Sequence record: OQ599310
DNA: 64,000 nt
Direction: 5' to 3' (one strand)
DNA from: Escherichia phage 55
In this document: positions 1,854 through 55,637 of the stretch, in pieces
Layout of the letters: every line of letters starts with the position of its first letter
Position numbering within the stretch: the stretch's first letter is position 1
Translations under genes and position numbers: made by a program
Notes under the pieces: generated by a model
Seen by the model: only the letters and a program-made list of their open reading frames with translations
What the model was told of the DNA's origin: nothing
Database searches by the model: none

Positions 1854-2062
1854 ATATACATTATCCACATCCATACGACCCAAAGAATAAGGCAGTAATT
1901 ATTCGTCAATGGGAACGCATTTGCCGTACTAAATGTCCAATTAATAGTCCACATGATGTAGATAAAGACTACATTGGAACATTCGTTGAATATACCTTTA
2001 TTGATAAGAAAGGTCGTAAACAGCATGTAGAAGAATACTGCTTAAAGGTGACATGGTTATGA
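1835..2062 (+). CDS. hypothetical protein (75 aa)
   Basis: ORF in tight early-gene array; start overlaps upstream gene. Confidence 0.4.
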   Translation: MGTIIMNIHYPHPYDPKNKAVIIRQWERICRTKCPINSPHDVDKDYIGTFVEYTFIDKKGRKQHVEEYCLKVTWL

Positions 2063-2265
2063 GCCAAACAAAAATTCTTACAGGCGCTAAATGCGAAAAA
2101 TGCGAATGGCCTGTAGTTTTTGCTTTATGCAATGACGAAATGGCTTGTGATTTTGATTATTGGTGTTACTGTTCGAACAAAGGTTGTAGCAATCATAAAG
2201 GTGAAGGGTTTTACTCAGGATTTTACCCTTACCCAGATTTCGTTAAAGAAGGTGAACCTAAATGA
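2053..2265 (+). CDS. Cys-rich small protein, putative zinc-binding
   Basis: 70 aa with multiple CxxC-type pairs (CEKCEW..., CYCSNKGCSNH). Confidence 0.45.
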   Translation: MVMSQTKILTGAKCEKCEWPVVFALCNDEMACDFDYWCYCSNKGCSNHKGEGFYSGFYPYPDFVKEGEPK

Positions 2266-2444
2266 AATTGACTAAAGAAGAGAAAGCTAAACTGTTAGAA
2301 CTTATCCATGACCTATTGGATGAACAAGCAGCCACCAATGCGTACGATGAATATGCTCCTTTGACGGACGAAGAATATCACGCATTGATGGAATCATTTG
2401 ACAGGAAAGAACAAGAACTCATTGACTACGTGAATTCACTATAA
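2262..2444 (+). CDS. hypothetical acidic protein (60 aa)
   Basis: ATGA overlap with upstream ORF; helical acidic sequence. Confidence 0.45.
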   Translation: MKLTKEEKAKLLELIHDLLDEQAATNAYDEYAPLTDEEYHALMESFDRKEQELIDYVNSL

Positions 2445-2453
2445 GGGACTCTT

Positions 2454-3035
2454 ATGGCTAGTTTAATTTTTACATATGCCGCTATGAACGCTGGTAAGTC
2501 TGCTTCATTACTTACTGCCGCACATAACTATAAAGAACGTGGCATGGGTGTATTAGTTCTTAAACCGGCTATTGATACTCGTGATTCAAAAGGTGAAATA
2601 GTCTCTCGTATTGGTATTCGTCAGGATGCCAATATAATTACAAAAGACATGGACATCTTTGAATTCTATAAATGGGCTGCAGCACAAAAGGATATTCATT
2701 GTGTATTTGTTGACGAAGCTCAGTTCTTAACTACTGAAAAGGTGTATCAACTTAGTCGTATTGTTGACGTATACAATGTGCCAGTAATGGCATATGGGCT
2801 ACGAACAGATTTTAAAGGTAATCTATTTGAAGGTTCTCAAGCATTAATGGCTATTGCCGATAAGCTTGTTGAACTTAAAGGTGTCTGTCATTGTGGTAAA
2901 AAGGCCACAATGGTAGCTAGAGTCACGGAAGACGGACTTCCAATTACAGATGGCAGTCAAATTGAAATTGGTGATACCGATAGATATGTGTCATTATGCC
3001 GGAAGCATTGGAATGATTTGACAGGGTTGTTATAA
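2454..3035 (+). CDS. tk: thymidine kinase
   Basis: MASLIFTYAAMNAGKS P-loop start, CHCGKKA zinc motif; near-collinear with T4 Tk as recalled. Confidence 0.95.
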   Translation: MASLIFTYAAMNAGKSASLLTAAHNYKERGMGVLVLKPAIDTRDSKGEIVSRIGIRQDANIITKDMDIFEFYKWAAAQKDIHCVFVDEAQFLTTEKVYQLSRIVDVYNVPVMAYGLRTDFKGNLFEGSQALMAIADKLVELKGVCHCGKKATMVARVTEDGLPITDGSQIEIGDTDRYVSLCRKHWNDLTGLL

Positions 3036-3038
3036 ATA
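3031..3038 (+). promoter_or_regulatory. late-promoter-like TATAAATA overlapping tk stop codon
   Basis: exact TATAAATA about 25 nt upstream of the ATG at 3063. Confidence 0.35.
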
Positions 3039-3062
3039 CTAATATCTAATCAAGAGGTATAT

Positions 3063-3275
3063 ATGTAGCAATTAAACGAAAGACAACTTCGTAATCTTAC
3101 TGTAACCCAATTGGATGAAATCCGAAGAGAATTAGGACATTCTATTTCTCATTTAAATGAGGATATCCGTCAAACTGGTTCTAAAGCTGATTATACACGC
3201 AAGCGCAAGCTGGAAAAATACCTCACAGATGTTAAGGCCGTCCAAAGGCGAAAAATAAATACTGGCCAAAATTAA
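3063..3275 (+). pseudogene. small ORF with in-frame TAG as codon 2 (possible amber-interrupted gene between tk and rI)
   Basis: AAGAGG RBS, ATG at 3063 followed directly by TAG, then 68 sense codons with protein-like composition ending TAA at 3273..3275. Confidence 0.3.
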
Positions 3276-3287
3276 CAGGAGGCCTAT

Positions 3288-3590
3288 ATGGCCTTAAGAG
3301 CGATAGCTGTCATAGCGATGCTGGGGTTTTTTGCAGCAACAACTCCTATCGTTGGTACTGCACATATCGACCCATATTTTGATAACTTTATGGAATCAGG
3401 GATTAAAAACGTATATACTTTGTTTGAAATTCAAAATGTCGAGAATTCTGAAAAATTCTATAAGTATATGGCAAAGCATTACAAAAATAGTCCCTGTGAT
3501 GATGCATTTGAATGTCATGAACAAGGCATAAAAACCGCCAGACAATTTGCTGAGTTCATGAAAATAAAATTAGAGCCTACATCTATCTAA
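3288..3590 (+). CDS. rI: lysis-inhibition regulator RI-like protein with signal-anchor
   Basis: 100 aa, hydrophobic N-terminus, AGGAGG RBS; position downstream of tk and size match T4 rI. Confidence 0.6.
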   Translation: MALRAIAVIAMLGFFAATTPIVGTAHIDPYFDNFMESGIKNVYTLFEIQNVENSEKFYKYMAKHYKNSPCDDAFECHEQGIKTARQFAEFMKIKLEPTSI

Positions 3591-3878: not shown

Positions 3879-4088
3879 ATGCTTTACGATTATACTGGAA
3901 AATCTGAAGACGGTGTACTTGAACTTTTACCTGAAAGCGCTGAAGATGACGATATGACGACGGTGATGTTTTGTAAAAATGGCCCTGGGGATAAGGGATG
4001 GATTTATCTTCGTCAAGAAAATGACTTAATTGTTTTGGACCCTAAACAAGTTGAAGAACTTTATCAACATTTAAAACACAATCGGTAG
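3879..4088 (+). CDS. hypothetical acidic protein (69 aa)
   Basis: GAGGA RBS before ATG at 3879. Confidence 0.5.
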   Translation: MLYDYTGKSEDGVLELLPESAEDDDMTTVMFCKNGPGDKGWIYLRQENDLIVLDPKQVEELYQHLKHNR

Positions 4089-4126
4089 TTTACAACTTGA
4101 TAGGACTATGTTATAGTAGTCCTATC
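4088..4126 (+). promoter_or_regulatory. early promoter with 10-bp inverted repeat spanning the -10
   Basis: GTTTAC 4088..4093, TATAGT 4112..4117; GATAGGACTA / TAGTCCTATC arms. Confidence 0.55.
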
Positions 4127-4145
4127 AAACCGAACGGAGAACAAA

Positions 4146-4256
4146 ATGAAACTTTTGCTTATCGCTTATGTTGTAGTACAATACAATTATCCGATGTTTA
4201 CTTATAACATGGTAAACGGCATAGTGAATCTTATTGAAATGAGTATGGTAAAATGA
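4146..4256 (+). CDS. small hydrophobic ORF (36 aa), not in track
   Basis: GGAG RBS before ATG at 4146; stop overlaps next start as ATGA. Confidence 0.3.
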   Translation: MKLLLIAYVVVQYNYPMFTYNMVNGIVNLIEMSMVK

Positions 4257-7962: not shown

Positions 7963-8250
7963 ATGGATTTTATGCAAAAAATTAAAGCCGCAGTCGAACT
8001 CTATGCTCATCGTATGGTTAGTTCTACGATGCAATATAGCGAGGAGGTTCGCCAGGACTCTTCCTTGAAAGGAAAAACTAAAGCCTTAATTACCTTAGAT
8101 CATTTGCAAAAGAGTGCCATAGAGATGCTCCAGTACGACAAGGATGCGTATAAGAAAGAACAGGAAGAGAAACTTAAATCTGAAAAATTACAAAAAATCC
8201 CGAAGTCGGTTTGGTTCAGTGGAAAAAATACCGAAAAAAGTTTCTTTTAG
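7963..8250 (+). CDS. hypothetical protein (95 aa)
   Basis: AAGAGG RBS before ATG 7963. Confidence 0.5.
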   Translation: MDFMQKIKAAVELYAHRMVSSTMQYSEEVRQDSSLKGKTKALITLDHLQKSAIEMLQYDKDAYKKEQEEKLKSEKLQKIPKSVWFSGKNTEKSFF

Positions 8251-8252
8251 TT

Positions 8253-8281
8253 GTTTACAAGGTCTATGATTATGTTATTAT
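8253..8281 (+). promoter_or_regulatory. early promoter with inverted repeat
   Basis: GTTTAC 8253..8258, TATTAT 8276..8281; GGTCTAT/ATAGACC arms. Confidence 0.5.
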
Positions 8282-8308
8282 AGACCTATCAACTACTGGA
8301 GGTAAAAC

Positions 8309-8836
8309 ATGAACGCTAAAGATATTTTCAACCTGGTAAATTATAACGACGGTAAATTTAAATCTGAAGCACAAAGCAAGTTCTTTAATGACGTTGCTTA
8401 TGGTAACGAGATTACCGTAGACGGAGGTCAGATTTTCAAATCTCGCTGGAATTGGATTGTTATCATCGATTCAGTTGGAATTGTGGAAGTCTACAAAAAC
8501 ACCAACAAAAAACGTACATTATTCTGGTCTCGTGAAACTAACGAGCAGTACAAAAAGGATAAAGCATCTCGTTTATCCAAAGTAACCCAGGAAGATATCG
8601 AGTTTATCAAGAAAGATATCGAGATGTACGAAAATTTAATCGCTGAAGACCAGGCAGTACTCGATAAGTTTGATGAAATTAAAGCTTCTCGTGAAATCCC
8701 TGACTTCATGAAAGAAACAGTAAACGAACGATACGCTCTCACTTCAGAACGTATTGCAAACTATACAAAACAGAAAGCAGAACGTATTAGTACTCTTCGG
8801 AAATTTGAAGAACGTTTAAAGACGGTTCACGCATAA
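8309..8836 (+). CDS. hypothetical protein (175 aa)
   Basis: GGAGG RBS before ATG 8309. Confidence 0.6.
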   Translation: MNAKDIFNLVNYNDGKFKSEAQSKFFNDVAYGNEITVDGGQIFKSRWNWIVIIDSVGIVEVYKNTNKKRTLFWSRETNEQYKKDKASRLSKVTQEDIEFIKKDIEMYENLIAEDQAVLDKFDEIKASREIPDFMKETVNERYALTSERIANYTKQKAERISTLRKFEERLKTVHA

Positions 8837-8837
8837 A

Positions 8838-8863
8838 CGCTTTACCCAAGGACGGGTTATAAT
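8838..8863 (+). promoter_or_regulatory. middle-promoter-like element (MotA-box-like GCTTTA + TATAAT)
   Basis: aacGCTTTA 8836..8844, 13-nt gap, TATAAT 8858..8863. Confidence 0.35.
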
Positions 8864-8898: not shown

Positions 8899-9894
8899 AT
8901 GAGCATTACATCTGATGCGGTAAAACATGAAATTAACGGTTTATGTGCTTCACAGATTAAAGTGTGGTTTAAAGACCATAACGATCGCAGAGCACTTAAT
9001 TATGAGCAAATTGCTATCCAAGTTCATCAATTACTGACTAGTAAATTTGATTTTCATATGCCGTCTGAAATCTATACTAATCTGCCGCGAGCACTTATTA
9101 AAGCGTGTAAAGGTTATGGAAAATCAATGGCTGATGGAATCTTCAGCGCGCTGAATAAACTTAACGTTCTGTCGATGATTAACTCTAACAACATCCTGCG
9201 TAATCTAGGACGTACTGATTTGTTCGGTCGTGAACAGTGTAAAATGCCTTTGAAATGGATTGTTGCTCATCTTAACGAGAACCAAACACGTTTTATGGCC
9301 GTAACAGCACGTTTACAAATGGGCCTAGATCGTCAGATGAACTTTAAAACTCATCCACGTTATTCAGGTTCAACAGACTTTTATAAATGTGAGCTTCAAA
9401 AGGTTGGTGGTAAAACTGTCTTAGTAGTTCGTGTAACGTTTGAAGGACGACGTCAAGGATATTTTGACATAATCGGCTCTGGACTTAAACATTGTGGATT
9501 TATCGACGAAGTTGATATCAAGCGAGACGGCGTTGGATACCGTATTGGGTATGTTTGTACTCTTAAAGAAGAGATTTCAGGACCAGTACCAGGACTAAAA
9601 GACGTTAGATATAAAGACGAGCTCGTTGAAGAAATAAAAGAAGTTGAATATGATATCAACCAAGAAGATGCTCTTAAAGACCTTATTGATGAACTGAACC
9701 AAGACGTTATTCCTGTTCAGAAATTTGAATCAAAACATGCTGAGCAAATCAAATACTTTGAAGCTTTGATTAACGAACTTAATGTAACTATTCAACAGAC
9801 TGACGATGAAATCTCACGATTAGCAGGCTTAAATGGTAAAAATAAAACAGAACGAGCTAATCTTATTCAAGTAGTAAAACTTCTTAAGGAATGA
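8899..9894 (+). CDS. hypothetical protein (331 aa) with C-terminal coiled-coil-like tail
   Basis: long ORF, GAGGAAA RBS; heptad-like C-terminus. Confidence 0.6.
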   Translation: MSITSDAVKHEINGLCASQIKVWFKDHNDRRALNYEQIAIQVHQLLTSKFDFHMPSEIYTNLPRALIKACKGYGKSMADGIFSALNKLNVLSMINSNNILRNLGRTDLFGREQCKMPLKWIVAHLNENQTRFMAVTARLQMGLDRQMNFKTHPRYSGSTDFYKCELQKVGGKTVLVVRVTFEGRRQGYFDIIGSGLKHCGFIDEVDIKRDGVGYRIGYVCTLKEEISGPVPGLKDVRYKDELVEEIKEVEYDINQEDALKDLIDELNQDVIPVQKFESKHAEQIKYFEALINELNVTIQQTDDEISRLAGLNGKNKTERANLIQVVKLLKE

Positions 9895-9923
9895 TGTACA
9901 ACCAAGGATGGTTGGAGTATAAT
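9895..9923 (+). promoter_or_regulatory. early promoter, copy 1 of conserved ~30-bp promoter repeat
   Basis: TGTACA-ACCAAGGATGGTTGGAG-TATAAT. Confidence 0.55.
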
Positions 9924-9949: not shown

Positions 9950-10909
9950 ATGGCTTTTATTACACGTAGAGAACTTATCAAAGAATTTACCTCGAACGCA
10001 TATACTCCAGGACCTAATCCTATCCGTATGCCTGTAAAGACTCCTGAAGAGATTGAGGAAATCTGTTCATATTATGGGATTAATTCTCGTATGTTTACTC
10101 AATTTGAATGCGTTACTAACACACCCGTTAAAGAGTTCATTAAAAATGGTGAGTTCAGCCGTTTATTAGCCAAACAGAAACTTCGTAATTTTTGTATTGG
10201 TGGTGAAGGACAATATTTCGCTAAGCAGTTCCGGAATAACCTTAACAATCTGATGGCCATTGCTTCTCGTATTCGTCCTCAAGCAATTAACATGAAACAT
10301 TTGAAATATACTTACGATAAGTTAGAAATCATGGTTATCAGTGAGAACGAGTTCACTCTTACATATAATCCTAAGAATGATAACGTTGCTCGTGTATTCC
10401 ACCAAGCACTGGAAGTTTTAGGCGATAATATCCACCAGATTAAAGCGATTTATTCTCGTGAGCTTAATATTATTGACCCTATCAAGAATAAGGGCAATAT
10501 CGCTATCCAGGCTCGTGTATCTATTGGTAAAAAGGTTCCTGCGCCATGGTGGCACAAAGACTCTGAATACTATCAAAATCTTAAAAAGGAAAATGCATTG
10601 TTTGAAGCATCGCTTACTGGGACCCCAATTGGCAATGCTGAAGTTCTAGGTGCATATTCTACTTCGAGTAAATCAATGTTTAAAGGTTTGCCAAATGTGT
10701 GCAAACTGTCTGCAGTAAAACTAAATGTTTCTAATGACCTTCTTCCGGCCGAAGATTACCATTACAATCAAATCAAGGCCACTATGGACCAACTGTCTGT
10801 TGAACTTGACAAAGCACAAGCTAAGCTTCGTGATGCTCAACAAGTAGTTACCAATCTCCAGTTGCAGTACTCTAAACTTTTTAACGCAATGAATGCATTA
10901 AAATCATAA
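9950..10909 (+). CDS. hypothetical protein (319 aa) with C-terminal coiled-coil-like tail
   Basis: long ORF downstream of promoter repeat; GAGGAA RBS. Confidence 0.6.
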   Translation: MAFITRRELIKEFTSNAYTPGPNPIRMPVKTPEEIEEICSYYGINSRMFTQFECVTNTPVKEFIKNGEFSRLLAKQKLRNFCIGGEGQYFAKQFRNNLNNLMAIASRIRPQAINMKHLKYTYDKLEIMVISENEFTLTYNPKNDNVARVFHQALEVLGDNIHQIKAIYSRELNIIDPIKNKGNIAIQARVSIGKKVPAPWWHKDSEYYQNLKKENALFEASLTGTPIGNAEVLGAYSTSSKSMFKGLPNVCKLSAVKLNVSNDLLPAEDYHYNQIKATMDQLSVELDKAQAKLRDAQQVVTNLQLQYSKLFNAMNALKS

Positions 10910-10913
10910 ATCA

Positions 10914-10943
10914 GTTTACAACCAAGGATGGTTGGAGTATAAT
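10914..10943 (+). promoter_or_regulatory. early promoter, copy 2 of conserved promoter repeat
   Basis: GTTTAC-AACCAAGGATGGTTGGAG-TATAAT. Confidence 0.55.
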
Positions 10944-10971: not shown

Positions 10972-11916
10972 ATGACACGTTCACATTACATTGATTATTT
11001 TGCAGGTCTTATCGCTAATGTTCATGCCCAACGTGCTTCTGGTTCATTAGGATTTGATGTTCCACACCGAGATGTAGTAAGTGGTATTCTTCGCGATTTT
11101 GGTACATATACCGGCCAAGAAAATCATATCTGTAAAGATACTCAAAATGCGTATTCTCATTCATTAGGGACACTGCTTCAATGGTTCAAACGTTCTCGTT
11201 TATTATCTTCTACTGTGGCTCGCGATAACATTAAAAACTTTATGAAACCGAGCTTTATTAAATCTGTGACATCTAAAACCGATTTGGTTGAATTTACCAT
11301 TATTAACGATGTTAAAAAGACTCATTTAGCTGATTGGTTATCTACAATTCCTGAAACTAAATTTGCTGATAAATTTGCTTGTGAATTCAATAACCAAGTG
11401 AATATGCTTTTTAAACATTCACGTAAATTATTCACAGGCGGCGATGGTCGTACAAATAAAGTTCATGTTAAAGATTGGGTTACTGCAGTATTCAAACCAA
11501 CTGGTAATGGTAACGCATCGTTATCAATTGATATCCAGGTTCCTTATTATTACTCACGTAATCTCGGTACAATGAAAGCCGAAGAAATTAATAAGCGCAA
11601 CAAAACCATTCGTTCTCTGTCTTATAAACTTCGCATGATGTTACAGACTATGGATGTTGTTGAAATGTTCGACGAAACCGAAGATAACGGTTCAATGTTA
11701 TTCAGTTCTCGAATTAAAATTAAACTGAAGAACCCTAATGTGTTTAAGTCTATTAAAGAACCTAAAGCAGAAAAGGTTGATATCATGGCTGAAGAACGTG
11801 AGTACCTCAAATCTCGTCTGAAAGAAGTCGAAGCCCAGATTGCAGAACAAACTAAATCGTTAAAAGCTCTGAATGCGAAAGCGGACGGTTTACGAAATGC
11901 CATTGAGGTTTTATAA
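10972..11916 (+). CDS. hypothetical protein (314 aa) with C-terminal coiled-coil-like tail
   Basis: long ORF; GAGAGGAAAA RBS. Confidence 0.6.
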   Translation: MTRSHYIDYFAGLIANVHAQRASGSLGFDVPHRDVVSGILRDFGTYTGQENHICKDTQNAYSHSLGTLLQWFKRSRLLSSTVARDNIKNFMKPSFIKSVTSKTDLVEFTIINDVKKTHLADWLSTIPETKFADKFACEFNNQVNMLFKHSRKLFTGGDGRTNKVHVKDWVTAVFKPTGNGNASLSIDIQVPYYYSRNLGTMKAEEINKRNKTIRSLSYKLRMMLQTMDVVEMFDETEDNGSMLFSSRIKIKLKNPNVFKSIKEPKAEKVDIMAEEREYLKSRLKEVEAQIAEQTKSLKALNAKADGLRNAIEVL

Positions 11917-12221
11917 TGAAACTACGTCTTTTAGAGGATATTGATATGAGCACTAATCACGGCTTGGTTAAGTTTATTGACGATAGTTCAAAGATTGAAT
12001 TTGTTCAGCGAGATAAAATCCACGGTGAAGAAGAGTTCGTTCCTCCGGCATGGAACGAAATAATGAAAATGGTTGAACGACGTGAAAATGCTGCCAAATC
12101 GGCGGCAAAACATCTATGCCCGGAATGTGGAACTATCCAAGTCCAACTGGTTAACTGGACCACCGATAACTTGAAATTGAAATGCCGTAAATGCTTCCAC
12201 AAATTTGAGAGAACATTATAA
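11916..12221 (+). CDS. zinc-ribbon protein
   Basis: CPECG...CRKC pairs; ATGA-coupled start. Confidence 0.55.
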   Translation: MKLRLLEDIDMSTNHGLVKFIDDSSKIEFVQRDKIHGEEEFVPPAWNEIMKMVERRENAAKSAAKHLCPECGTIQVQLVNWTTDNLKLKCRKCFHKFERTL

Positions 12222-12634
12222 TGAGATATAGCCTTCGTTGTTTTATCGCAGCTTTAGTTTTTGCTGTTATTCCATTCATTTGGAACAGCCAGAATACTTA
12301 CATGGAAACTAAAGTAATTCCTGTGGAGGTAGTGGAATTAATCTCAGGCCAATCTACAGGAAAATATTCTAAATTGGAATTTATCGCAGTCTATAAAGAT
12401 GAGCAAGGACGAGTTTTTGACAGGCATGTATCTCCATCATTTTATACGCTTCTGAATAAAGGTGATACGATAGCTATAGAAATTCGTGAGATGGATATCA
12501 AACAAACTACTAAAGATAACTTGATTTGGTTCTTTGGTACAGTGTTGTTGGTTTCTATCTGTATCACAGGTTTTATTACATGTATTGTATTTGGCATTGC
12601 ATATTTAATCGATGAAAGGAAAAATAATGTTTAA
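12221..12634 (+). CDS. membrane protein
   Basis: N- and C-terminal hydrophobic helices; ATGA-coupled start. Confidence 0.55.
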   Translation: MRYSLRCFIAALVFAVIPFIWNSQNTYMETKVIPVEVVELISGQSTGKYSKLEFIAVYKDEQGRVFDRHVSPSFYTLLNKGDTIAIEIREMDIKQTTKDNLIWFFGTVLLVSICITGFITCIVFGIAYLIDERKNNV

Positions 12635-41458: not shown

Positions 41459-41833
41459 ATGAATATGTCTCAAGCAATTTTTACTGCAATCACCGAAAAC
41501 ACAACTGTTGAAGTAGTTTCTCCGCTGGCAACCTACGTTATTCTTGCTCCTAAAACTATTGTATCTCGTATGGAAAACATGGGCAAACGTATCGTACAAA
41601 TCGTTGGAGCCGGAAATCAAAAACTTGATTATCTGCGAACCATCAAAGCTTATGAACATTTCCAACTCGAAAAAGGTTCTCCTATCCAGGTAGAACTCGT
41701 AAATGGTGATATCGTTCGAGCAATGTTCCATCATTTCTATGCATTGAATGACCCATCTAAAGCGGTTCGTTTAATTGCATACGACGCAAACCAAAACGAA
41801 ATCAATGCAGATATATCTAAATTACGTTTTTAA
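41459..41833 (+). CDS. hypothetical protein (124 aa)
   Basis: AGAGGAAA RBS before ATG 41459. Confidence 0.55.
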   Translation: MNMSQAIFTAITENTTVEVVSPLATYVILAPKTIVSRMENMGKRIVQIVGAGNQKLDYLRTIKAYEHFQLEKGSPIQVELVNGDIVRAMFHHFYALNDPSKAVRLIAYDANQNEINADISKLRF

Positions 41834-41880
41834 GTTTACTTCTCCAGTAGTTGTGTTATTATAGACCTATCAACTACTGG
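41834..41880 (+). promoter_or_regulatory. early promoter with 10-bp inverted repeat whose downstream arm overlaps the RBS
   Basis: GTTTAC 41834..41839, TATTAT 41857..41862; CCAGTAGTTG 41844..41853 / CAACTACTGG 41871..41880. Confidence 0.55.
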
Positions 41881-41888
41881 AGAACAAA

Positions 41889-42206
41889 ATGAAAACCATC
41901 GATTGTAAAGCAGAATTTAAGATTTTTTATCACGGTTCAAGTAGTTCAGTTAACATCGAAAACATGCTTTGTCCTCCTGAAGAAACAGGAGTTCTGTCTG
42001 AAACTGGACGTAAGAAAAACTTGGATCGTGTATTCTTTACTGAAGATATCGGTTTAGCAAAGATTTATGCAGGACGAGCAGCACGCTCTTATGGAGGTGA
42101 ACCACGTCTCTATCGAGTAATTTCTCCGGTAGACGTAGTTCAAATGAATGATACTAAAGGTGCTACAGTTTATCACGCTGAATGGGCCTTCTGTGAGGAA
42201 ATCTAA
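41889..42206 (+). CDS. Arr-like (rifampin ADP-ribosyltransferase family) fold protein
   Basis: FYHGSSS...RVFFTEDIGLAKIYAGRAA...GEPRLYRVISP parallels Arr motifs FYHGTKA...HIYFS...GYIYIVEPTGP as recalled. Confidence 0.4.
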   Translation: MKTIDCKAEFKIFYHGSSSSVNIENMLCPPEETGVLSETGRKKNLDRVFFTEDIGLAKIYAGRAARSYGGEPRLYRVISPVDVVQMNDTKGATVYHAEWAFCEEI

Positions 42207-53544: not shown

Positions 53545-53549
53545 AACCA

Positions 53550-53579
53550 GTTTACAACCAAGGATGGTTGGAGTATAAT
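53550..53579 (+). promoter_or_regulatory. early promoter, copy 3 of conserved promoter repeat
   Basis: GTTTAC-AACCAAGGATGGTTGGAG-TATAAT. Confidence 0.55.
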
Positions 53580-53609
53580 CTTTCTATCTTAACCAAACAG
53601 GAAAACATT

Positions 53610-54104
53610 ATGAATATCAATACTACGGCTACTTACATCCTGAAAGATGAAAAACAAATCAACTGGTATGGTGCTTCAGTGCGAGCTTATGAAAAGTTTT
53701 GTGAAATTTTAGGTGCCACTCAAGGTAATAGTTTCACTATTGTTAACTTCATCAAACAAGTTGAAGGCCCTTGGTTATTCTTAGAAATTAAAAATTCATA
53801 TGGTACAATTTCTACTACCGCCCTTCCAAGCACCGACTTTGAACTGCTGATTGAAGAAGTAGAACCCGTTAAAGATATCTGTATTGATATGGATATCGCT
53901 TGTATGTACGGTACTCTTATTAAGCCTATTGAGCCTACTGATTTGCTGTGTAAATATGTTTCAATTCGACGCCCATTCGCTGGTCCAGTAAATGGATGGG
54001 TAACTGATCAGTGGATTGAAGACGGTGTTGAACTTCTGAACGTTGTTCATGCCGGTGATTTTAGTGTGGTTCCACGTAGTGCAGTAGTTAATATTCTAAA
54101 TTAA
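53610..54104 (+). CDS. paralog 1 of a three-gene family (conserved C-terminal GW[IV][ST]DQW[IV]EDG...N[IV]V...GDF.VV)
   Basis: ATG 53610 (track start 53568 is a TTG inside the promoter repeat). Confidence 0.55.
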   Translation: MNINTTATYILKDEKQINWYGASVRAYEKFCEILGATQGNSFTIVNFIKQVEGPWLFLEIKNSYGTISTTALPSTDFELLIEEVEPVKDICIDMDIACMYGTLIKPIEPTDLLCKYVSIRRPFAGPVNGWVTDQWIEDGVELLNVVHAGDFSVVPRSAVVNILN

Positions 54105-54107
54105 TGT

Positions 54108-54136
54108 TGTACATCCAAGGATGGATGGAGTATAGT
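54108..54136 (+). promoter_or_regulatory. early promoter, diverged copy 4 of conserved promoter repeat
   Basis: TGTACA-TCCAAGGATGGATGGAG-TATAGT. Confidence 0.5.
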
Positions 54137-54168
54137 GAATTCAATTTAAACAAAGAGAGAGAGAAATT

Positions 54169-54624
54169 ATGATTACTATTGGTGAAATTAAGCGTGTATC
54201 GTCTGCATCTCGTTCTAAAGCTGCAGGTCGTCTAGTTGAAGTGGTAGGACTTCGTACTAATGGTACTGGACGTGTTAAAGAAGTTAAAGTTCGAATCATT
54301 CCTAGTTCTGGAAAAACTGAAACTCAGTACGCTTACGTAAGTCCTAAATTCTTGGAAACTCATGTGAGCGCTCATTTTGCTTCTACTGAACCTAATGTAC
54401 AGTTCAAATGGGCCCTTTGCAAAGGCGTTGAATTCCGGACTGATAAAGAATTTGATTTCATCGACGAATATGGTTATCCAAACAAAACTGATATTATGTG
54501 CGGCTTCATCACTGACCAATGGGTTGAAGATGGTGAAAAGTTATACAATATCGTATTCTTAGGTGACTTCCGAGTTGTTAAAGAATCTGAAATCACTCGC
54601 TATGTGTCTCCTCGTAAAGCTTAA
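54169..54624 (+). CDS. paralog 2 of the three-gene family
   Basis: shares N-terminal SRSK(A/V)AG(R/K)LVEV and C-terminal GFITDQWVEDGEKLYNIVFLGDFRVV with paralog 3. Confidence 0.55.
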   Translation: MITIGEIKRVSSASRSKAAGRLVEVVGLRTNGTGRVKEVKVRIIPSSGKTETQYAYVSPKFLETHVSAHFASTEPNVQFKWALCKGVEFRTDKEFDFIDEYGYPNKTDIMCGFITDQWVEDGEKLYNIVFLGDFRVVKESEITRYVSPRKA

Positions 54625-54633
54625 GGAATTATT

Positions 54634-55053
54634 ATGAATATTGTAAATCTCTCTACAGGTGATTACGTATATGTATCTGTTGCTTCTCGCTCTAAAGTTG
54701 CCGGGAAGTTGGTTGAAGTTCTTTCTGTGAGTGATCCGGTTTTTGGTCGTAACCAAGTTAAAGTTCGTGATGCTAATGGTAATATTGGCTACGTCTCAAG
54801 CCAGTTCATTGAGCCAGAAGAAAAAGCGTTCAAATGGGGACTATGCAGATCAGTTTCTGTTGAAAAAGACCATGAATTCACTATTGCCGCGGCAACTGAT
54901 GGAACGCCATGGAAAACTAAGCAAATCGCCGGATTTATTAGCGACCGTTGGGTAGAAGATGGTGTTAAGCTTTATAACATCGTTTTCGCTGGTCAGTTCA
55001 TGGTAGTTCCTGAATTCCAAATTAAAAAATATAGCCCAGCTGCTTTCGCATAA
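54634..55053 (+). CDS. paralog 3 of the three-gene family
   Basis: GFISDRWVEDGVKLYNIVFAGQFMVV. Confidence 0.55.
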   Translation: MNIVNLSTGDYVYVSVASRSKVAGKLVEVLSVSDPVFGRNQVKVRDANGNIGYVSSQFIEPEEKAFKWGLCRSVSVEKDHEFTIAAATDGTPWKTKQIAGFISDRWVEDGVKLYNIVFAGQFMVVPEFQIKKYSPAAFA

Positions 55054-55057
55054 AGTT

Positions 55058-55106
55058 GTTTACTTCTCCTCTGGTTTTGATATTATAACCATATCAACCA
55101 GAGGAG
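55058..55106 (+). promoter_or_regulatory. early promoter with 11-bp inverted repeat whose downstream arm contains the RBS
   Basis: GTTTAC 55058..55063, TATTAT 55081..55086; CTCCTCTGGTT 55066..55076 / AACCAGAGGAG 55096..55106. Confidence 0.55.
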
Positions 55107-55112
55107 AATAAT

Positions 55113-55637
55113 ATGTTAGTTTACCGCGTAGAACGTAGTTTTTGTACTCAACGTGAATCATTACCAGGAATTGTTATCGAAGACGGTAAAGCCGTCAGAA
55201 TTTGGGAAACCTCTTGGAATAAAGAACCTCGCTCACCTTACGGTTGGTCTGGCACTGACAACTCTGAAGAAACATGGGAGTTCCTTGATAAGCATGGAAT
55301 ACTCTCAGGTAACTTCTACCATCACGGCGACAACTATAATGTCCCTAATCGTCCTACTGTAAATGAGGACAAACTTCTTGAACAAAATATCTTAAGATAC
55401 TACAGAATTGAGCACACATTTGAATTGAACGAAGATTGGGCTCAAGGGTTCTATTTTGGATTTGAAAGTGTTGACGCGGTTTATGCATGGTTTGATGACC
55501 AGGTGGATGTTGAACTCTTGAAAGCTAAAGGATACTACATCGCGGTCTATGAAGCACCTGATTTCATCCTCGGAAGTTGTCAATTAATGTTTAGACGTTC
55601 ATTGGCAGAACAAGTTGATTTTATTTTGCTAAAATGA
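55113..55637 (+). CDS. hypothetical protein (174 aa)
   Basis: GAGGAG RBS before ATG 55113. Confidence 0.55.
   Translation: MLVYRVERSFCTQRESLPGIVIEDGKAVRIWETSWNKEPRSPYGWSGTDNSEETWEFLDKHGILSGNFYHHGDNYNVPNRPTVNEDKLLEQNILRYYRIEHTFELNEDWAQGFYFGFESVDAVYAWFDDQVDVELLKAKGYYIAVYEAPDFILGSCQLMFRRSLAEQVDFILLK

Follow-up and report, generated by a model that had tools for sequence, protein, structure and literature searches.

Repeated promoter blocks in a phage genome raise the question of whether they only start transcription or also serve as recombination substrates through which genes are shuffled. Here we examine this question for a 64,000-nucleotide stretch of DNA from Escherichia phage 55 (sequence record OQ599310; referred to below as the window), a Mosigvirus, i.e. 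an RB69-like T4-type phage, that shares 97% identity with O157 typing phages, ST0 and others. We consider it probable that its four repeats are regulatory cassettes of the PeSL type: early promoters whose direct copies shuffle single genes in Mosigvirus. PeSLs (promoter-early stem-loops) were described for RB49 and phi1 (Arbiol et al. 2010, PMC2839356) and also for PST/T4, in the form TTTACW-N17-TAYWAT, and nt-1/KVP40 (Comeau et al. 2014, PMC4122927).

The sequence ACAACCAAGGATGGTTGGAGTATAAT occurs exactly three times in the 64-kb window (9898-9923, 10918-10943 and 53554-53579), as established by pattern search and direct reading, and a pattern search of the window located a further copy with three mismatches, ACATCCAAGGATGGATGGAGTATAGT, at 54111-54136. 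All four have + strand orientation. With 100 dinucleotide-preserving shuffles, no match to the ACAACCAAGGATGGTTGGAGTATAAT pattern was obtained, and the four copies claimed in the preliminary description are real. Copies 2 and 3 share an exact block of 32 bp (CAGTTTAC...TATAAT), and their likeness runs on to the ATG, over about 66 bp in total; the two are 42.6 kb apart and precede unrelated genes. Copy 3 of the window and copy 2 of RB69 share 46 exact bp. The longest exact run that copy 4 shares with the other copies is 10 bp (CCAAGGATGG).

Each copy occupies an intergenic gap of about 60 nt, in which the stop codon of the upstream gene is followed by an A/T-rich stretch, a -35 box, a 17-bp spacer, a -10 box, a leader of about 25 nt with a Shine-Dalgarno (SD) sequence, and the next ATG. 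The upstream stop codon precedes the hairpin by 4-10 nt, the SD and the next ATG follow 26-32 nt after the -10 box, and the -35 box lies immediately 3' of the stop codon or at most 6 nt from it. Copy 1 (9895..9923, + strand), upstream of nrdC.5, consists of the -35 box TGTACA (9895-9900), a hairpin, CAACCA-AGGA-TGGTTG (9899-9914), the motif GGAG (9914-9917) and the -10 box TATAAT (9918-9923). Copy 2 (10912..10943, + strand), upstream of nrdC.3, has TTTACA at 10915-10920, the hairpin at 10919-10934 and TATAAT at 10938-10943, and copy 3 (53548..53579, + strand), between dexA and the first MotB-like gene, has TTTACA at 53551-53556, the hairpin at 53555-53570 and TATAAT at 53574-53579. In the diverged copy 4 (54108..54136, + strand), upstream of the second MotB-like gene, the boxes are TGTACA and TATAGT (54131-54136), and the pairing of the hairpin (CATCCA-AGGA-TGGATG, 54112-54127) is kept by a compensatory double change (A>T / T>A).

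A fifth, degenerate relative of the repeat lies upstream of nrdC.6 (8844..8863, + strand) and reads ACCC-AAGGAC-GGGT followed by TATAAT at 8858-8863, with no -35 box at 17-bp spacing; PST has similar PeSLs, described as 'half' or degraded. Its counterpart in ESCO47 has the perfect form ACCCA-AGGA-TGGGT. At the orthologous site, T4 (before nrdC.7) and likewise JS98 and VR7 (before nrdC.6) have TTATACCA-AGGA-TGGTATAA, an 8-bp stem in which an extended -10 box forms the 3' arm.

Copies 1 and 2 belong to the nrdC-mobD hyperplastic region (locus 1), copies 3 and 4 to the dexA-motB region (locus 2). In locus 1, copy 1 follows nrdC.6 (8899-9894; RB69 nomenclature), nrdC.5 (9950..10909, + strand; 319 aa, DUF7235) forms a single-gene cassette between copies 1 and 2, and nrdC.3 (10972..11916, + strand; 314 aa, phrog_1435) stands directly behind copy 2. 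The latter is a distant paralogue of T4 nrdC.4, a gene absent from the window. In locus 2, the first MotB-like gene (53610..54104, + strand; 164 aa) is the cassette between copies 3 and 4, and the second (54169..54624, + strand; 151 aa, PF17613) stands directly behind copy 4. The preliminary description had noted that the genes behind the copies resemble their neighbours in size. The dexA-adjacent triplet is truly paralogous and belongs to the MotB family (PF17613). For the 319/314-aa pair, the likeness is not explained by detectable paralogy, as the NrdC.5 and NrdC.3 proteins gave no blastp match with each other and fall into different PHROGs. The first MotB-like protein (164 aa) has only its C-terminal ~36 residues in common with the other two. 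The PHROG to which it mainly belongs (2333) is another one, and it may hence be a domain-swapped relative. No separate promoter precedes the third MotB-like gene (54634), which begins 9 nt after the second (block 53610-55053).

From their boxes, all four copies are predicted to be strong 'early' promoters of the host sigma-70 type. Each has sigma-70-like boxes about 17 bp apart (TTTACA or TGTACA, N17, TATAAT or TATAGT), with 9 to 11 of 12 positions in agreement with the consensus; copies 2 and 3 (11/12) rank first among the sigma-70 matches of their regions, and copy 4 reaches 9/12. The predicted promoter role, already proposed in the preliminary description, is supported both by this fit and by orthologues in RB69, for which 58 early promoters were predicted by HMM (Nolan 2006, PMC1524935 supplement 3): Pe:52042, Pe:51019, Pe:8947 and Pe:8387 in that list correspond to copies 1, 2, 3 and 4, the last with a low score of 6.2 (PMC1524935). 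Other annotators have placed a 'promoter' feature at these sites in phage records; the T4 records NC_000866 and AF158101 contain no promoter features at the homologous sites. Like the early promoters of T4 (consensus of Liebig & Rueger and of Miller et al., as given in PMC1524935), the copies have a -35 box of the GTTTAC type, a -10 box of the TATAAT type and an A-rich upstream region, and lie 5' of early-region genes. In contrast to the ordinary early promoters of the window, which have only the boxes in common and quite different spacers, the four copies share the whole spacer and part of the leader. A middle or late promoter was rejected (there is no MotA box at -30, and only the T4 nrdC.3 variant resembles TATAAATA), as was a replication origin at the two loci, since T4 oriA (near soc) and oriC (near rI.-1) do not coincide with them (PMC3016281).

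Copies of the repeat flank indels between close relatives at both the nrdC.5 cassette and the first MotB-like cassette. In PTE-Eco05, which lacks the nrdC.5 cassette, nrdC.6 and nrdC.3 are separated by one repeat; the upstream flank matches that of copy 1 at 197 of 200 positions and the downstream flank that of copy 2 at 188 of 200. The gap measures 57 nt versus 1077 nt, and the difference of 1020 bp is exactly the distance from copy 1 to copy 2. With a 431-bp query across this junction, the nrdC.5-less arrangement was found to be contiguous in 21 phage records, PTE-Eco05 included; in the window-type records listed, the alignment of the query ends at position 231, which is 3 nt beyond the 3' end of the repeat. 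The situation at locus 2 is analogous: in AV116, a single repeat of the copy 3 type stands between dexA and the second MotB-like gene (upstream flank 199/200 versus copy 3, downstream flank 176/200 versus copy 4), and the first MotB-like cassette of about 558 bp is absent. The latter is missing from at least 10 records, which include AV116, PTE-Eco05, JK42 and JK45. All four combinations of presence and absence were seen among close relatives (mostly >92% identical): both cassettes are present in the window and neither in PTE-Eco05 and AV116, nrdC.5 alone is missing from JM10 and WFL6982, and the first MotB-like gene alone from JK42. The indels were scored by presence and absence, and deletion and insertion, in one or several independent events, both fit. 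The comparison of related genomes for cassette exchange that the preliminary description had proposed thus gave the predicted result (21 and at least 10 records), and its view of the repeats as recombination substrates is supported by the one-repeat junctions from which exactly nrdC.5 or the first MotB-like cassette is missing.

A chimeric repeat, ACAACCAAGGACGGATGGAGTATAAT, is present in ESCO47 (locus L050, positions 3502-3527). Its 5' arm is of the Mosig type and its 3' arm of the JS98 type, and the two mispair with one A.A and one A.C mismatch. Such chimeric arms suggest the footprint of a crossover within the repeat, inside its loop. An exchange between copies 3 and 4 would need either microhomology or a better-matched parent, such as the WFL6982 type, whose copy 4 has TATAAT, because in the window the two copies have only 10 exact bp in common.

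The spacer of copies 1-3 is a perfect palindrome with a 6-bp stem and an AGGA loop (CAACCA-AGGA-TGGTTG), which the preliminary description had not mentioned, and in copy 4 the palindrome is retained in altered form. Hairpins at about 15 loci of Mosig-, Dhaka-, Gapriver- and Tequatrovirus were aligned. All have the AGGA loop; the stems are CATCCA/TGGATG in Dhakavirus E33, C6 and 04086, CATCCA..CGGATG in JS98, CTTCCA/TGGAGG with one U.G pair in Gaprivervirus VR7, AGCCA/TGGCT upstream of nrdC.3 in T4, and CCACA/TGTGG, which abuts TATAAT, upstream of nrdC.4 in T4. Among 12 distinct variants from the four genera, 90% of the cells are paired (slid controls: 18-43%), double changes occur in 4 of the 6 pairs, and the covariation score was reached by none of 500 shuffles. 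The lower stem covaries across the four genera, and the AGGA loop and the closing C-A/T-G pairs are kept. When CAAGGAYG cores were searched without a pairing requirement, the intergenic ones had at least 4 flanking pairs each, except for the ESCO47 chimera with 2, and those inside genes had 1-2.

It is because of this covariation that the hairpin is judged to be a conserved feature; folding energy alone gives no support, as the stem is weak (about -7 kcal/mol, z-score not significant) and the hairpin is part of the minimum-free-energy structure of copies 1, 2 and 4 and not of copy 3. The two wobble pairs (one U.G, one G.U) against three A.C mismatches among the variants do not separate an RNA from a DNA hairpin. 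The offset of the hairpin from the -10 box varies by 3-7 bp in T4. The first G of the GGAG that follows the stem is also the last base of the stem, and the 3' context, UAUAAUA, agrees with the RegB consensus at 5 of 7 positions. An intrinsic terminator was rejected: none of the four hairpins appeared in lists of terminator-like sites, and they are followed by GAGTATAAT instead of a T-run. Rfam gave no covariance-model match at gathering score for the whole window. In ESCO47, the arms of the chimera are unpaired and the phage is viable, which argues that the hairpin is dispensable for viability. It is conceivable, albeit a long shot, that the AGGA loop with its C-A/T-G closing pairs is a putative recognition element for a phage factor (recombination helper, nuclease or RNA-binding protein). 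If so, the factor would direct exchange or RNA processing to these particular early-promoter cassettes, and cassette shuffling at the two loci would be partly site-specific and not a by-product of general homologous recombination; the same possibility has already been raised for the GGGG/CCCC stems by Arbiol et al. (PMC2839356).

A 68-bp cassette is present in 231 phage records, at two to four places per genome in Mosigviruses (mostly three or four) and at one place in Dhaka- and Gapriverviruses. The proteins encoded behind the promoter block (25-58% amino acid identity) are far less conserved than the block itself: NrdC.5 of T4 and the window are 25% identical, and NrdC.4 is 41-49% identical between genera. 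The cargo itself varies, with nrdC.4 and nrdC.3 in T4, only nrdC.3 in Mosigviruses and only nrdC.4 in Dhaka- and Gapriverviruses, and among the genera compared, nrdC.7 stands behind the nrdC.8-side hairpin in T4 only. Between genera, each variable cassette has one of these same hairpin promoters at its 5' edge. Searches with degenerate patterns yielded mainly spurious matches: in IMG/VR, all 38 loci with TAC-N6-AGGA-N6-GAGTATAAT were chance matches within genes with non-complementary arms, and the at least 120 metagenome matches to CCAAGGAYGG-N3-GGAGTATA were mostly unrelated motifs with non-complementary flanks. The metagenome matches listed included six T4-type nrdC.3 copies and no new stem variants.

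These results are consistent with the following course of events. As an early promoter within an intergenic gap, each copy would provide the downstream gene with its own immediate-early transcription, as judged from the sequence and from the earlier predictions. As direct repeats of 27-46 identical bp around single genes, the copies would at the same time offer portable homology to the highly active T4-type recombination/replication machinery, for which less than 50 bp of homology is enough according to the citation of Singer 1982 in PMC2839356. Exchange or slipped mispairing between two direct copies would remove the intervening gene precisely, possibly as a mini-circle, and the same reaction run backwards would bring it in. 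With a single hybrid promoter left in place, the next gene would still be expressed. Natural variants display the outcome; the enzymatic route we infer. The genes here are all co-oriented, and from the nrdC.8 promoter (8254) as far as copy 2 no terminator-like site was found on the + strand, so that read-through RNA containing the hairpin is expected. The hairpin would exist only in such transcripts from upstream promoters, or in single-stranded DNA, and its most likely roles would be to attenuate upstream transcripts weakly or protect their 3' ends, and/or to favour misalignment of the copies as a palindrome. Other candidate roles would be a RegB cleavage context at GGAG and a recognition site for a phage factor.

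The same data can be read in other ways. If the copies were only promoters that are alike by constraint and gene duplication, the indels would be due to illegitimate recombination or homing-endonuclease-driven exchange and would end in the gaps by accident. In favour of this, the MotB-like genes behind copies 3 and 4 are indeed paralogous, the distantly paralogous nrdC.3 and nrdC.4 both have a hairpin promoter in T4, and the nrdC-mobD region commonly contains homing endonuclease genes. Duplication of the promoter along with its gene, which is partly true for the MotB-like genes, is nevertheless rejected for nrdC.5 and nrdC.3, as these show no similarity and yet follow an identical block of 27 bp. 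The 32-46 exact bp of copies 2 and 3, found before unrelated genes 42.6 kb apart, and the quite different spacers of the other early promoters of the window likewise speak against constraint and duplication, and accidental ends are hard to reconcile with two independent indels that both start and stop within the repeat, with exactly one copy remaining, or with the existence of a chimeric repeat. We regard an explanation by promoter function alone as improbable.

The two remaining alternatives concern the hairpin. It might be an essential RNA signal in read-through early transcripts (attenuator, 3'-end stabiliser or RegB context), to which the promoter homology would be secondary. Such a signal would fit the covarying lower stem and the invariant loop and closing pairs in four genera, the conservation of the block beyond that of the downstream proteins (NrdC.5 25%, NrdC.4 41-49%), the one U.G and one G.U pair among the variants, and the read-through RNA expected from gene orientation and the lack of terminator-like sites. 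RegB cuts intergenic GGAG and prefers unpaired GGA (PMC3014915), and GGAG follows the stem at the MotB-like genes and at nrdC.3, nrdC.4 and nrdC.5; however, the motif is missing from the T4 variants at nrdC.4 and nrdC.7, and the strong RegB consensus GG*AGRAYARAA is matched only in part (PMC3014915). The weak stem, which is not significant against shuffles and lacks a T-run, the lack of an Rfam match, and the tolerance of A.C mismatches in the closing pair and of the broken stem in ESCO47 also count against an essential RNA. Moreover, covariation in a DNA palindrome can also come from the templated correction of quasi-palindromes, which is said to be known in T4 from Ripley's work. An essential RNA signal thus seems unlikely to us. 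Still less can be said for the palindrome as a double-stranded operator of a dimeric phage or host regulator of these early promoters, which we rate as very unlikely. Its limitation to two loci, instead of every early promoter, would suit an operator, but the half-sites covary (AAC/GTT, ATC/GAT, TTC/GAG, GCC/GGC) instead of being conserved, and it is the asymmetric centre alone that stays constant, the reverse of the pattern of a dimer operator; in addition, the T4 hairpin moves by 3-7 bp relative to the -10 box. T-even DNA contains glucosylated hydroxymethyl-cytosine, which we also count against an operator, and to our knowledge there is no operator-type repressor of T4 early promoters.

The preferred reading, that of PeSL-type cassettes, agrees with what has been reported for such elements. 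Like PeSLs, the repeats consist of a stop codon, an A/T-rich stretch, sigma-70-like boxes separated by N17, a stem-loop, an SD and an ATG; the window's boxes also fit the TTTACW...N17...TAYWAT of the PST/T4 elements. The stem-loops of PeSLs are most often found between the -35 box and the -10 box or overlapping the latter (PMC2839356), and the hairpin described here, which lies between or overlaps the promoter boxes, has the position of this commonest subclass. In both cases, a genome carries several conserved copies, which cluster in hyperplastic regions (here four plus one degenerate copy, as intergenic units from stop codon to SD/ATG), and these border single non-essential genes that very close relatives may have or lack. 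The PeSLs of RB49 and phi1 lie in hyperplastic regions beside genes that differ between the two phages, and the formation of mini-circles was detected by inverse PCR (PMC2839356). All sequence-level features of PeSLs are thus present, and by these features the element belongs to a known class. There are also differences: the genus here is Mosigvirus, unlike those of PMC2839356 and PMC4122927; the stem is short and weak (6 bp with an AGGA loop), whereas RB49 has G-run/C-run stems and PST has AGNA...TCNT stems; and the same hairpin core, C-A-AGGA-T/C-G, is common to four genera. Effective termination was shown for one RB49 PeSL (PMC2839356), whereas the hairpin here is not terminator-like, and its weakness and lack of a T-run make such a property doubtful. 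The idea of recombination at these elements is not new, having been put forward as the PeSL model by Arbiol et al. 2010 (PMC2839356). The novelty is modest and consists of the clean cassette indels in many Mosigvirus isolates, the AGGA core that covaries across four genera, and the natural chimeric repeat.

Two further systems invite comparison. Inhibitory RNA hairpins that start inside promoters are known from the T4 genes e, soc, 49 and I-TevI (PMC3014915); as expected here, they are confined to transcripts that come from upstream promoters, the local start being downstream of or inside the hairpin. Unlike these, the hairpin of the four repeats lies wholly upstream of the start site and contains neither SD nor AUG, so that it cannot sequester a ribosome-binding site. 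Deletions between short direct repeats, as far as they are described through the citations of Albertini et al. 1982 in PMC4122927 and, for T4, of Singer et al. 1982 in PMC2839356, resemble the present case in the precise loss of a segment with retention of one copy. A homology of less than 50 bp and a palindrome inside the repeat are also common to both. Deletion between short direct repeats is reportedly aided by palindromes, a finding attributed to Glickman and Ripley in 1984. Unlike the repeats in such deletions, those described here are functional regulatory units, which means that each product would still be correctly expressed and makes the reverse insertion plausible.

The loci would provide a clean natural example, beyond the original PeSL phage pairs, of single accessory genes that are gained or lost with the expression of their neighbours undisturbed, the promoters themselves being the boundaries of the exchanged unit. 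For the use of Mosigviruses in therapy and biocontrol, this predicts that nrdC.5 and the first MotB-like gene are unstable, and for their engineering, it predicts sites at which cargo could be placed for early expression. The conserved AGGA hairpin offers a small, defined handle on the question of whether the stem-loop of PeSLs has a function of its own.

Several additional observations were made. Strong stem-loops accompany other early-type promoters of the window (41829-41900, 55053-55120, 4083-4150 and 8248-8312; also at about 43308, 3637 and 49031). With -17 to -24 kcal/mol, z-scores down to -5.9 and the -10 box enclosed, they represent the stronger kind of PeSL stem. At promoters 41835 and 55059, the 3' arm of the stem includes the Shine-Dalgarno sequence of the next gene, so that the ribosome-binding site would be sequestered in upstream transcripts, as in T4 e, soc, 49 and I-TevI.

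The block of three MotB-like genes (window 53600-55058) is 88% identical to positions 2001-3485 of the corresponding locus (L052) of Tequatrovirus teqhad, and the dexA genes beside it are too diverged between window and teqhad for megablast. The likeness begins in the 5' leader, just 3' of the position of copy 3 in the window, and teqhad has no AGGA promoter at the position matching copy 3. From these sequences, it looks as if the block was transferred laterally between Mosigvirus and Tequatrovirus. The position of nrdC.7 also differs between genera. In RB69, the gene lies between nrdC.2 and nrdC, a position that we take to be 12221-12634 in the window because the order and sizes of the ORFs match those of RB69; in T4 (locus L048, 9902-10303, with which this interval was compared), it lies between nrdC.8 and nrdC.6, directly behind a hairpin promoter. 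By this comparison, nrdC.7 is relocated, and its boundary in T4 is again a predicted PeSL-type element.
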